64,000 nt of DNA, from NCBI RefSeq assembly GCF_041886205.1, contig NZ_CP169029.1. One strand, given 5' to 3'. Below the pieces are notes generated by a model, which did no database searches, was not told the DNA's origin, and saw nothing but the letters and a program-made list of their open reading frames with translations. Shown in pieces: positions 45,889 to 49,528 of the stretch. The first letter of the stretch is position 1; each line of letters opens with the position of its first letter. Made by a program: the position numbers and the translations under genes. Source of the stretch: Escherichia coli. GTDB lineage: Bacteria; Pseudomonadota; Gammaproteobacteria; Enterobacterales; Enterobacteriaceae.

Positions 45889-46668
45889 TTAGTAGCTGCT
45901 GGCGCTCTTACCGTCGCCGTGGCCCAGCGCTTTCAACAGGCTTGCCAGCAGGCTGGAAGCGCCAAAGCGGTAGTGACGCGCATCTGCCCAGTCAGCACCG
46001 AACAGTTCATCTGCAATCGCGAGATATTTCTGCGCATCTTCCGCAGTACGCACGCCGCCCGCTGGTTTGAAACCAACGGTTTTTTCTACGCCCATATCAC
46101 GGATCACTTCCATCATGATGCGCGCGCTTTCCGGCGTCGCGTTCACAGCCACTTTACCGGTAGAGGTTTTGATGAAGTCCGCACCCGCTTTGATGGAGAT
46201 TTCAGACGCTTTACGGATCAGCGCTTCGTCTTTTAGTTCGCCGGTTTCGATGATCACTTTCAGCAGTACATTCGCTGCCGCGCAAGCCTCTTTACAGGCT
46301 TTCACCAGGTCAAAACCAACCTGCTCGTTACCCGCCATCAGCGCGCGGTACGGGAACACCACGTCAACTTCATCGGCACCGTAGGCGATTGCCGCACGGG
46401 TTTCTGCCAGCGCGATTTCGATGTCGTCGTTACCGTGTGGGAAGTTGGTTACCGTAGCAATACGGATTTCCGGGGTGCCCTGCTCTTTCAGTGTTTTGCG
46501 AGCAATCGGGATAAAGCGAGGATAGATACAGATAGCGGCGGTATTGCCGACCGGAGTTTTGGCCTGATGACACAGAGCAATTACTTTCTCGTCGGTGTCG
46601 TCGTCATTCAGGGTGGTCAGGTCCATCAATTTCAGTGCACGCAGGCTGCTTGCTTTCAGATCAGTCAT
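45889..46668 (-). CDS. deoC: Deoxyribose-phosphate aldolase DeoC
   Basis: [58 protein letters not shown]...; track ORF 45889..46692 has an 8-codon extension. Confidence 0.97.
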
Positions 46669-46925
46669 TTCATTCTCCTGGCTTGTCGCCAATAAAATTC
46701 ACCTTGCGAGTTTGTTAGTATTCTAACATCTACTCCGCAACACACTTCGATATACATCACAATTAAGGAAATCTACTTACAAGTTTGCATCACTGTAATG
46801 CGATCTGGTTCAAATAATTCACTTTCAAATGAATGCGTCAGTGGTGGCAAACGCATCAGGATCAAAGTGAACATCACGAAACTTCTTACAATGGCGCATC
46901 ACCTTCGGCATAAAAGGAAAAGAAG

Positions 46926-48476
46926 ATGCCCACTTCTCATGAAAATGCACTGCAACAACGTTGCCAGCAAATTGTCACCAGCCCAGTGCTTAGCCCGGAG
47001 CAGAAGCGCCATTTTCTGGCTCTGGAAGCAGAAAACAATCTGCCTTATCCGCAGCTTCCTGCCGAAGCCCGCCGCGCGCTGGATGAGGGTGTAATCTGCG
47101 ATATGTTTGAAGGTCATGCGCCGTACAAACCGCGCTATGTCTTACCCGATTACGCCCGTTTTCTGGCGAACGGTTCCGAATGGCTGGAGCTGGAAGGCGC
47201 GAAAGATCTTGATGACGCACTCTCTCTGCTGACCATTCTTTACCACCACGTACCGTCGGTCACATCGATGCCGGTCTACCTGGGGCAACTGGATGCGTTG
47301 TTGCAACCGTATGTTAGAATTATAACACAAGACGAGATCGATGTTCGAATAAAACGTTTCTGGCGTTACCTCGACAGAACCCTGCCAGACGCCTTTATGC
47401 ACGCCAATATCGGCCCGTCTGATTCGCCCATTACCCGCGCGATCTTACGTGCAGACGCAGAGTTGAAGCAGGTTTCACCGAACCTGACCTTTATCTACGA
47501 TCCTGAAATCACCCCTGATGACCTGCTGCTGGAAGTGGCGAAGAACATCTGTGAATGTAGCAAACCGCACATCGCCAACGGTCCGGTGCATGATAAAATT
47601 TTCACAAAAGGGGGCTACGGGATTGTGAGCTGTTACAACTCACTGCCGCTGGCGGGTGGTGGCAGCACGCTGGTACGCCTTAACCTGAAAGCCATTGCCG
47701 AGCGCAGCGAATCGCTGGATGACTTCTTTACGCGCACTCTACCGCACTACTGCCAGCAGCAGATCGCCATCATCGATGCGCGGTGTGAATTCCTCTATCA
47801 ACAATCACACTTCTTTGAGAATAGCTTCCTGGTGAAAGAAGGGCTGATTAACCCTGAACGTTTTGTGCCAATGTTTGGCATGTATGGGCTGGCGGAAGCG
47901 GTTAACTTGCTGTGTAAGAAAGAAGGGATTGCCGCGCGCTACGGTAAAGAAGCCGCCGCAAATGAAGTGGGTTATCGCATCAGCGCGCAACTGGCGGAGT
48001 TTGTCGCCAATACCCCCGTGAAATATGGCTGGCAAAAACGCGCCATGTTACACGCACAGTCGGGGATCAGTTCCGATATCGGCACCACGCCGGGCGCGCG
48101 TTTACCCTATGGCGATGAGCCAGATCCGATCACCCATCTGCAAACTGTCGCCCCGCATCATGCTTATTATTATTCCGGCATCAGCGACATTCTGACGCTC
48201 GACGAAACCATCAAACGTAACCCGCAGGCGCTGGTACAGCTTTGCCTCGGTGCCTTTAAAGCCGGAATGCGTGAATTTACTGCCAATGTCAGCGGTAACG
48301 ATCTGGTTCGCGTTACCGGTTATATGGTGCGTTTGTCGGATTTAGAAAAATATCGCGCCGAAGGTTCACGCACCAACACCACCTGGCTGGGCGAAGAAGC
48401 CGCACGCAACACTCGTATTCTGGAACGCCAGCCGCGCGTGATAAGCCATGAACAGCAGATGCGCTTTAGTCAGTAA
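46926..48476 (+). CDS. yjjI: YjjI, putative glycyl-radical enzyme (DUF3029), function unknown
   Basis: 516-aa [79 protein letters not shown]... Confidence 0.92.
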
Positions 48477-49311
48477 GATTATCCCCTTCTCCTGCGTTGA
48501 CGGGCCAGGCAGTCGTCTGGCTCTGTTTTTGCAGGGCTGCAATCTGCGCTGCAAAAACTGTCACAATCCGTGGACGATGGGACGTTGCAATGACTGTGGG
48601 GAGTGCGTGCCACAGTGTCCGCATCAGGCATTGCAGATTGTTGACGGCAAAGTGGTGTGGAACGCTGTGGTTTGCGAGCAGTGTGATACCTGCCTGAAGA
48701 GGTGTCCGCAACATGCCACGCCAATGGCGCAATCCATGAGCGTGGACGAAGTGCTTAGCCATGTCCGCAAAGCGGTGCTGTTTATTGAAGGGATAACGGT
48801 AAGCGGCGGCGAAGCCACGACCCAACTGCCGTTTGTAGTGGCGCTGTTTACTGCTATCAAAAACGATCCGCAACTGCGCCACCTCACCTGCCTGGTGGAT
48901 AGTAACGGCATGTTGAGCGAAACCGGCTGGGAAAAATTACTCCCGGTGTGTGACGGCGCAATGCTCGATCTCAAAGCGTGGGGGAGCGAATGTCATCAGC
49001 AATTAACCGGACGCGATAATCAGCAGATTAAGCGCAGCATCTGTTTGCTGGCAGAGCGCGGTAAGCTGGCGGAACTGCGTTTGCTGGTGATCCCTGGCCA
49101 GGTGGATTATTTGCAACACATCGAAGAACTGGCGGCGTTTATCAAGGGACTCGGCGATGTTCCGGCACGCCTGAACGCGTTTCATGCCCACGGCGTGTAT
49201 GGCGAGGCGCAAAGCTGGGCGAGCGCCACGCCGGAAGACGTTGAGCCGTTGGCTGATGCGTTAAAGGTGCGCGGGGTGAGCCGGTTGATATTTCCGGCGC
49301 TCTATTTGTGA
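48448..49311 (+). CDS. yjjW: YjjW, radical-SAM glycyl-radical-enzyme activase
   Basis: 287-aa [42 protein letters not shown]... (CxxxCxxC) plus ferredoxin-like Cys clusters; overlaps yjjI by 29 nt. Confidence 0.92.
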
Positions 49312-49312
49312 C

Positions 49313-49528
49313 ATGCCGGATACGGCCTACGGTTCGGCACAGACTTGTAGGCATGATAAGACGCGACAAGCGTCGCATCAGGCATTGTGCGCCAACTGCC
49401 GGATGCGGCGTGAACGCCTTATCCGGCCTACGGTTCGGCACAAACCTGTAGGCATGATAAGACGCGACAAGCGTCGCATCAGGCATTATGCGCCGACTGC
49501 CGGATGCTGCCTACGAAGGGTAAACTAC
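49313..49528. repeat. Tandemly duplicated REP/BIME unit (about 101-bp period, 2 copies)
   Basis: ctacggttcggcac...gtaggcatgataagacgcgacaagcgtcgcatcaggcatt...gccggatgc at 49327 repeats at 49428 with a few substitutions; fills the spacer between convergent yjjW and yjjV. Confidence 0.85.

Follow-up and report, generated by a model that had tools for sequence, protein, structure and literature searches.

The 64,000-nucleotide stretch of Escherichia coli DNA analysed here (contig NZ_CP169029.1 of assembly GCF_041886205.1; hereafter the window) carries the gene pair yjjI-yjjW on its plus strand. yjjI (46926..48476) encodes a YjjI-family glycyl-radical enzyme (GRE) of 516 residues, and yjjW (48448..49311) encodes a radical S-adenosylmethionine (SAM) GRE activase of 287 residues. 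The two open reading frames (ORFs) overlap by 29 nt (48448..48476, from the ORF coordinates), the ATG of yjjW at 48448 lying 29 nt ahead of the last base of the yjjI stop codon; translational coupling of the two genes through this overlap is probable. The 29-nt overlap recurs in most of the 80 enterobacterial loci compared, and overlaps of 4-26 nt are found in distant homologues. The deo operon is divergent from yjjI, with deoC at 46668..45889 followed by deoA and deoB, all on the minus strand. An earlier reading of the letters alone (the original prediction) had proposed a GRE with its own activase next to deo; its ORF coordinates and overlap were reproduced exactly, and the adjoining deo operon was found on the opposite strand as described.

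A 3-kb query over yjjI-yjjW matches 5422 of 5426 complete E. coli genomes at 98-99.9% identity, a match being counted at ≥80% of the query length. In the matched genomes RefSeq names the products ‘YjjI family glycine radical enzyme’ and ‘YjjW family glycine radical enzyme activase’; the pair lies between deoC and yjjV. The K-12 counterparts are b4380 (yjjI) and b4379 (yjjW), and the K-12 RefSeq product name for YjjI is DUF3029 protein. The pair is an already catalogued orphan: the GRE and activase assignment stands in Pfam, NCBIfam, RefSeq and the FNR regulon literature, both NCBIfam models, TIGR04040 and TIGR04041, have the status ‘hypoth_equivalog’, and a literature search for a substrate or function of YjjI or YjjW gave expression data only and no functional study, which agrees with the earlier statement that the role of the pair is unassigned. 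A paper on a uric-acid pathway that mentions GREs had no bearing on the pair. YjjI belongs to the last few GREs of E. coli for which no reaction is known. Enzymes of this class have repeatedly proved to perform chemically difficult anaerobic steps of importance for medicine and ecology, such as the conversion of choline to trimethylamine (TMA), the dehydration of hydroxyproline, and the cleavage of sulfonates and anhydro-sugars. The present analysis places YjjI structurally, excludes three known GRE chemistries on the basis of motifs, describes a promoter footprint that is conserved, and reports an association with nucleoside genes that extends across phyla; its contribution is a narrowed, testable nucleoside/pentose hypothesis for a known orphan enzyme.

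The sole Pfam match of YjjI is PF11230, ‘Glycyl radical enzyme YjjI-like’ (E = 3e-220; score 732 bits, cutoff 23). With TIGR04040 the protein scores 786.5 bits (cutoff 498.3), and the family model covers residues 11-504. Scores so far above cutoff, together with that of YjjW given below, exclude a chance ORF pair on sequence grounds. The family is small, with 542 matches, many of them fragments, when 1.84 billion cluster representatives were scanned exhaustively with HMMER; it is nonetheless core to E. coli and Salmonella and also present in Haemophilus (HI0521) and gut Lachnospiraceae. We also note a 574-residue NCBI protein (P0004) that shares 99% identity with YjjI across 91% of the query and has, in addition, a DeoC/LacD aldolase Pfam match. 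Since deoC is divergent from yjjI, this protein is probably an assembly or gene-call chimera on its 2.9-kb contig.

An alignment of 24 full-length YjjI members, reaching down to 29% identity, has only 15 invariant columns, among which are C236 (in V-S-C-Y-N), R462 and G465. R462 and G465 belong to the putative glycyl-radical loop R462-V-T-G465-Y near the C-terminus (codons 48309..48323, plus strand), and C236 lies in the Cys finger loop S235-C236-Y237-N238 (codons 47628..47639, plus strand), the presumed site of the thiyl radical. C236 is the only invariant Cys of the 24 sequences, and S235, Y237 and N238 are at least 90% conserved. Comparison of a single YjjI sequence with the PDB sequences gave noise only, so that pyruvate formate-lyase (PFL) and the class III ribonucleotide reductase (RNR) NrdD were reached only with the family profile. 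The profile matches PFL chains at E = 0.0014-0.0018 and aligns YjjI ‘YGVVSCYN’ on PFL ‘YAIACCVS’ and ‘RVTGY’ on ‘RVSGY’, whereby S235-C236 falls on C418-C419, C236 on C419 and G465 on G734. The glycyl-radical fingerprint that the original prediction had proposed to look for at the C-terminus is present in YjjI, with both Gly and Arg invariant. hhalign relates YjjI to E. coli NrdD with E = 4.6e-5 over 406 columns, a low-confidence match at 68% probability, and to PflB with E = 4.7e-5 over 384 columns. The catalytic loops are matched in the profile alignments with both enzymes; the NrdD alignment is locally shifted around the Cys loop and was left out of the fine residue mapping. The equally weak significance of the two matches puts YjjI at about the same distance from the reductases and from the PFL-type enzymes, and by this comparison YjjI represents a deeply branching, minimal GRE that consists of little more than the catalytic barrel.

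The AlphaFold2 (AF2) model of YjjI, computed with a 69-sequence alignment as input, has a predicted local distance difference test score (pLDDT) of 92.3 and a predicted template modelling score (pTM) of 0.91. The model is a 10-stranded alpha/beta barrel with two opposing finger loops, which is the GRE/RNR fold. C236 and G465 are each situated at the tip of a predicted beta-hairpin, formed by strands 231-234/238-241 and 460-462/467-469, respectively. The figures listed beside the model are 28.1 for PflD, 26.6 for IslA, 26.5 for CutC, 26.3 for HPAD and 25.8 for PFL, with ~18-22 for class I and II reductases. Family profiles, the invariant residues C236, R462 and G465, and the predicted barrel all agree with the proposal of a GRE with a dedicated activase, and by every in silico test YjjI is a bona fide GRE. 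R251, at least 90% conserved, aligns on PFL R435. Other conserved polar residues lie on or near the predicted barrel strands, namely R70, Y71, D123, D150, H159, N186, K213, N218, E305, H376, Q378 and R392. These polar and basic residues suggest that the substrate is polar and anionic.

YjjW matches TIGR04041 with 395 bits (cutoff 250), together with PF04055, and remains below cutoff for every other GRE-activase model. The claimed CxxxCxxC motif and ferredoxin-like Cys clusters are both present: C31-x3-C35-x2-C38 (48538..48561, plus strand), the radical-SAM [4Fe-4S] motif, aligns on CLMRCLYC of the PFL activase (PFL-AE), and an insert encoded at 48586..48705 (plus strand) bears two CX2CX2CX3C motifs at residues 47-57 and 76-86, with matches to Fer4_9, Fer4_7 and Fer4. 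Comparison with the crystallised PFL activase (8fo0/3c8f) gives E = 7e-19, and VDGPGSR (the DGPGxR loop), the cluster motif and SGGEA (the GGE SAM-binding motif) align on PFL-AE. Ferredoxin-insert activases comprise the PflC/PflE type (TIGR02494) and those of hydroxyproline dehydratase, choline TMA-lyase and HPAD. YjjW resembles them in its CX3CX2C, DGPGSR and GGE motifs and its two CX2CX2CX3C clusters, but it scores 133.5 bits with TIGR02494 (cutoff 174), and 139 bits, again below cutoff, with the model of the hydroxyproline dehydratase activase. Because of the TIGR02494 score, YjjW is best placed by sequence as a sister family of the TIGR02494 activases and not a member. The auxiliary clusters are not universal in the YjjW family, since homologues from archaeal and high-GC (71%) contexts (L084-L086, L100-L102) have 247-250 residues and lack the ferredoxin insert.

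The pairing of the two genes is widely maintained. In 79 of 80 enterobacterial loci yjjW comes after yjjI, and the one exception ends inside yjjI. Of the 95 non-enterobacterial yjjI genes for which a downstream ORF was called, 73 are followed by an activase-type ORF on the same strand. One Pasteurellaceae-like branch (L110, L112, L113, L115, L118) has yjjI followed by recQ on the opposite strand and no yjjW; in that branch the activase may be encoded elsewhere, or another activase may be borrowed. A sister branch (L106-L108, L111) has the order yjjI-yjjW-nupC-PNP.

Expression of yjjI is tied to anaerobiosis. yjjI was reported to be directly activated by FNR, with an FNR chromatin immunoprecipitation (ChIP) peak at 4,615,181 in an older K-12 coordinate version and FNR-dependent expression (PMC3688515); after our own conversion between coordinate versions the peak lies ~90 bp upstream of the yjjI ATG. 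It also belongs to an FNR-activated cluster (PMC2634741), and in Yersinia it is induced 4.3-fold anaerobically (PMC3792023). Consensus scans of the window were uninformative at yjjI: the promoter/terminator scan gave counts at chance level, and the FNR pattern, with up to 2 mismatches allowed, showed no enrichment in the window. For this reason phylogenetic footprinting was needed, and the deoC-yjjI intergenic region was aligned across 15 genera. Two invariant islands, 21 bp apart, stand out in otherwise variable DNA, namely GGATCAA (46859-46865) and TACAAT/TACACT. The former is the promoter-proximal half, and the only conserved half, of a predicted FNR site CGCATCAGGATCAA (46852..46865, plus strand) with 3 mismatches to TTGAT-N4-ATCAA. 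The latter contains the predicted -10 hexamer TACAAT (46887..46892, plus strand), whose T, A, A and T are invariant in the 15 genera. With the site centred at about -40.5/-41.5, the arrangement agrees with a class II FNR promoter; binding of FNR at exactly this site, and the transcription start, are what we infer from the footprint. A Shine-Dalgarno sequence AGGA (46915..46918, plus strand) can be read 7 nt before the yjjI ATG.

The predicted yjjI promoter is situated within DNA that controls the deo operon. DeoR operator O2 of deoP2 (46713..46728), conserved and with 1 mismatch to the 16-bp palindrome, lies between deoC and yjjI; operator O1 of deoP1 (47312..47327) lies inside the yjjI coding sequence, 599 bp from O2; and a candidate O_E (47591..47606), also inside yjjI, lies 279 bp from O1. 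The chance expectation for the DeoR palindrome is 0.23 matches per window. The 599-bp and 279-bp spacings agree with the published O2-O1 and O1-O_E spacings. The O_E candidate, with 4 mismatches, is weak on sequence alone. O1 encodes V130-T134, a variable loop of YjjI. In 19 genomes whose yjjI is next to deo, O1 is a perfect or near-perfect palindrome located at +380/+386 of the gene; Proteus, where yjjI and deo are apart, has no such palindrome. In the present strain O1 is TGTTAGAATTATAACA, with a C-to-A change at 47322 relative to the perfect palindrome of 12 of the 19 other genomes checked; this change breaks the operator symmetry and replaces Leu133 of YjjI by Ile.

The predicted yjjI promoter is located inside the DeoR O2-O1 loop, and, by the position of O1 in the coding sequence, deoP1 would fire antisense through the 5' end of yjjI. 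DeoR looping or deoP1 antisense transcription may influence yjjI. The two CRP sites of deoP2 appear as CRP-like matches in conserved blocks at 46746-46761 and 46799-46814. Relative to the predicted yjjI start the distal site would be situated near -93.5, and both sites may affect yjjI. CRP ChIP-seq reported one site TGTGATGTATATCGAA in the yjjI/deoC intergenic region and, in enterotoxigenic E. coli (ETEC) H10407, a second site CGTACCGTCGGTCACA within yjjI (PMC4287617). The latter corresponds to 47249-47264 of the window; since about 50-60 bp separate it from O1, it is probably part of deoP1 control and not of the control of yjjI.

At the other end, yjjW and yjjV are convergent and separated by two repetitive extragenic palindromic (REP)-type repeats (49315..49510; 95 nt each, 92% alike, 101-nt spacing). 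The repeat region matches Rfam naRNA4 (RF02564; 76.7 bits, minus strand), the only Rfam match in this region of the window, and is the probable 3' boundary of the yjjI-yjjW operon. It also accounts for some 36 extra BLAST matches per E. coli genome.

The deo adjacency had been taken by the original prediction as a hint of a nucleoside- or sugar-related reaction, and the gene neighbourhoods of other bacteria lend this hint independent support from Lachnospiraceae, other Firmicutes and Pasteurellaceae-like bacteria. The neighbourhood set comprises 182 loci, 80 enterobacterial and 102 non-enterobacterial; a metagenome scan seeded from a distant YjjI member contributed 80 loci. Among the 80 enterobacterial genomes, those of Enterobacteriaceae, Hafnia and Edwardsiella share the order deoB-deoA-deoC / yjjI-yjjW, which Proteus lacks. 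In Kluyvera and Edwardsiella a transporter ORF of 425-466 residues, absent in E. coli, stands between yjjW and yjjV and is convergent with yjjW (L049 12381-13658; L071 12447-13847); judged by eye, it would be of the NupC family of concentrative nucleoside transporters. Look-ups with distant members revealed same-strand nucleoside-gene contexts in four Lachnospiraceae sub-lineages and one other clade. These clusters contain PnrA/Bmp-type ATP-binding cassette (ABC) transporters, an inosine-uridine (IU) nucleoside hydrolase resembling UriH/RihC, a PfkB kinase and a purine nucleoside (PNP)/UDP phosphorylase, as well as an ADP-ribosylglycohydrolase (ARH)-family protein, an alkaline-phosphatase-superfamily enzyme and a LacI regulator closest to RbsR, PurR and CytR. 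Other contexts lack nucleoside genes: an archaeal one (eIF-1A, NMD3), a high-GC, probably actinobacterial one (71% G+C), and several proteobacterial ones.

For the 102 non-enterobacterial loci, ORFs were called and clustered without prior labels. The YjjW family was the most frequent neighbour (77 loci), followed in frequency by ABC ATPase (29), Bmp (19), ABC permease (17) and IU-nucleoside hydrolase (14); PfkB and RNase T2 (8 each), PNP and LacI (6 each) and NupC (5) were less frequent. When YjjI was grouped at 70% identity into 29 lineages, a nucleoside marker (Bmp, IU-nucleoside hydrolase, PNP, NupC or ARH) was found within five genes in 10 of them, 9 of these on the same strand. Because gene orders and transporter types (NupC versus Bmp-ABC) vary, the nucleoside association argues for selection rather than inherited synteny.

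Several other features of the neighbourhoods were noted. ADP-ribosylglycohydrolase-family (PF03747) proteins recur beside the nucleoside hydrolase (L094-L097, ~730 residues; L098 1187-2206; L089 7449-7895), and the long form in L094-L097 is extended at its C-terminus by ~400 residues that match neither Pfam nor NCBIfam. This gene set resembles the uncharacterised yegTUV cluster of E. coli. In L167 (27-13500; also in L183) one same-strand cluster contains a GAF protein, a full NrdD with an ATP cone, an activase-like gene, yjjI-yjjW, a Bmp-type ABC transporter, a GT4 glycosyltransferase and an HhH-GPD glycosylase. Another lineage has, in five loci, yjjW followed by an AlkD-like ‘DNA alkylation repair’ gene. 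With HhH-GPD and AlkD-like genes in separate lineages, N-glycosylases of several unrelated families recur near yjjI. Two apparent clues were rejected: a purine riboswitch in L140 serves a phosphoribosyltransferase gene ~6 kb away, and a queuosine link through ruvA-ruvB-spoIID-queA-tgt after yjjW, seen in three lineages, reflects a housekeeping block.

The best overall explanation of these data, in which we place about even trust, is a self-contained minimal GRE with its own activase that acts on a nucleoside-derived ribosyl or pentose substrate. The radical relay would follow the established GRE scheme, transferred to YjjI through its conserved residues and fold. yjjI-yjjW would be made only without oxygen, from an FNR-dependent promoter whose predicted FNR site is centred near -41 and lies within the DeoR O2-O1 loop, which is partly shown and partly inferred. 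YjjW, with its CX3CX2C [4Fe-4S] cluster and two auxiliary clusters, would cleave SAM to a 5'-deoxyadenosyl radical, which would take a hydrogen from Gly465 of YjjI. In turnover the radical would move from Gly465 to Cys236 on the opposing finger loop inside the 10-stranded barrel; the Cys236 thiyl radical would then abstract a substrate hydrogen, which the product radical would recover. The substrate would stem from imported nucleosides and is most likely the ribosyl or pentose-phosphate part freed by a phosphorylase, or by a hydrolase plus a kinase, because import (NupC or Bmp-ABC) and cleavage (PNP, or IU-nucleoside hydrolase plus PfkB) converge on ribose phosphate. Conserved basic residues, among them R251 at the position of PFL R435, may bind the anionic group of the substrate.

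The chemistry itself is speculative. It may be a redox-neutral hydrogen abstraction followed by C-O or C-N beta-elimination, similar to the first half of the ribonucleotide reductase reaction, and it could give a product cleavable by an aldolase such as DeoC, in parallel to the pathway of PflD/YbiW and the FSA aldolases. Beta-elimination is favoured here because of the reductase-like fold, the lack of a reducing Cys, and the PflD/YbiW parallel. That YjjI founds a new class of minimal GREs, which performs abstraction and beta-elimination on a nucleoside ribosyl or pentose phosphate under joint control with deo through the DeoR loop, is a more far-reaching proposal; we advance it tentatively and think it rather unlikely. 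If the substrate is a nucleoside or pentose, textbook nucleoside catabolism would gain a new anaerobic branch, and the tie of yjjI to the deo control region would be explained.

A number of observations weigh against this interpretation. About two thirds of the lineages have no nearby nucleoside genes, the archaeal, actinobacterial and ruvAB-queA-tgt contexts included; all nucleoside-positive lineages form one supercluster at 50% identity single linkage and are not fully independent; and the enrichment of nucleoside markers (binomial P ~7e-9) is calculated against an assumed 3% background, our own rough estimate. In E. coli deo is divergent from yjjI and not co-transcribed with it, and Proteus has yjjIW without deo, so that the adjacency may be inherited synteny. 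No ligand-revealing riboswitch was detected by Rfam upstream of the yjjI operons in 18 representative loci. The literature searched contains no protein-level experiment on YjjI, including any report of a glycyl radical. Against the proposed chemistry in particular stand the C-Y-N sequence in place of C-x-E and the lack of a second conserved Cys for reduction.

In the most serious alternative YjjI is a genuine GRE, its substrate is another small polar anaerobic metabolite, and the deo, nup and rih neighbours are coincidence or regional synteny. The unrelated neighbours of most lineages, the lack of a conserved third gene, the location of yjjIW away from deo in Proteus, and one locus with a major facilitator superfamily (MFS) transporter and a glycerophosphodiester phosphodiesterase downstream are all consistent with it. 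The occurrence of nucleoside transporter, hydrolase or phosphorylase genes in at least 10 lineages, mostly on the same strand and with varied orders and transporter types, speaks against it, and we regard it as possible but on the whole doubtful.

A biclustering study proposed that YjjI serves nitrate/nitrite respiration or the assimilation of nitrogen. In E. coli and Salmonella yjjI shares a cluster with narG and further nitrate genes (PMC3228777), and it is also listed among respiratory genes (PMC6643234). However, shared FNR control accounts for the co-expression, no nitrogen-metabolism neighbour recurs in the 182 loci, and the family is also present in fermentative Lachnospiraceae, which makes this role improbable.

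The fold and the family-profile match to NrdD raise the question of a cryptic or alternative anaerobic ribonucleotide (or nucleoside) reductase. In contrast to the class III reductase, YjjI is ~200 residues shorter, with 13-17% identity, and lacks the ATP cone and the C-terminal Cys4 zinc site, C440 being the sole Cys in its last 100 residues; E. coli YjjI has no ATP-cone or NRDD Pfam match. A second conserved Cys is also absent, the NrdD segment FNC175ML facing a gap in the 68%-probability alignment. YjjW is of the ferredoxin-insert type and not of the NrdG type, the match to PflB (E = 4.7e-5) is equally good, and a true NrdD coexists with YjjI in E. coli and in the metagenomic L167 cluster. 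A reductase function is very improbable on these grounds.

A 2-keto-acid formate-lyase of the PFL type is hardly more credible than a reductase, and we hold the two to be equally remote. In its favour are the profile match to PFL chains, the former annotation of H. influenzae HI0521 as a pflB homologue, and R251, which retains the position of R435, the carboxylate- and pyruvate-binding arginine of PFL. PFL requires the adjacent Cys418-Cys419, though, and YjjI has Ser-Cys in place of the Cys-Cys of PflB (PDB 1h16, 1cm5), the Ser being at least 90% conserved. YjjI also lacks ~250 N-terminal PFL residues, the alignment starting only at PflB residue 247; E. coli YjjI matches neither PF02901 nor PF01228 at E ≤ 0.1; and no conserved CoA-linked or formate genes are located nearby. 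A decaying or non-catalytic relic in E. coli, for which one could cite the lack of a reported phenotype and the existence of shorter E. coli entries of 402-476 residues, is scarcely conceivable in view of full-length genes in 5422 of 5426 genomes, catalytic residues invariant across phyla and regulated expression.

The eliminating GREs are marked by a Cys-x-Glu motif, in which the Glu serves as catalytic base. YjjI has C236-Y237-N238 instead, all at least 90% conserved, where the diol dehydratases, CutC, HypD and IslA have C-x-E. Judged by motif, three known GRE chemistries, reductase, PFL and C-x-E dehydratase, are excluded for YjjI. A parallel is offered by PflD and YbiW, the sugar-phosphate GREs of E. 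coli that are reportedly the subject of a paper by Ma et al. (J Am Chem Soc, 2024; ref. 37 of PMC12507026). They are PFL-like proteins of 764-810 residues (PDB 8yjo, 8yjn), whereas YjjI belongs to a separate Pfam family. In line with the parallel, the predicted YjjI product would again be a substrate for an aldolase. PflD and YbiW carry the C-x-E eliminase motif, and pflD and ybiW adjoin FSA aldolase genes, much as yjjI adjoins deoC; deoC differs in being divergent from yjjI and part of the classical deo operon. Under the far-reaching proposal of a new GRE class, YjjI would give access to a radical-based, anaerobic pathway by which salvaged nucleosides yield products that an aldolase can cleave, and it would be the pentose counterpart of the ‘radical glycolysis’ of PflD and YbiW.

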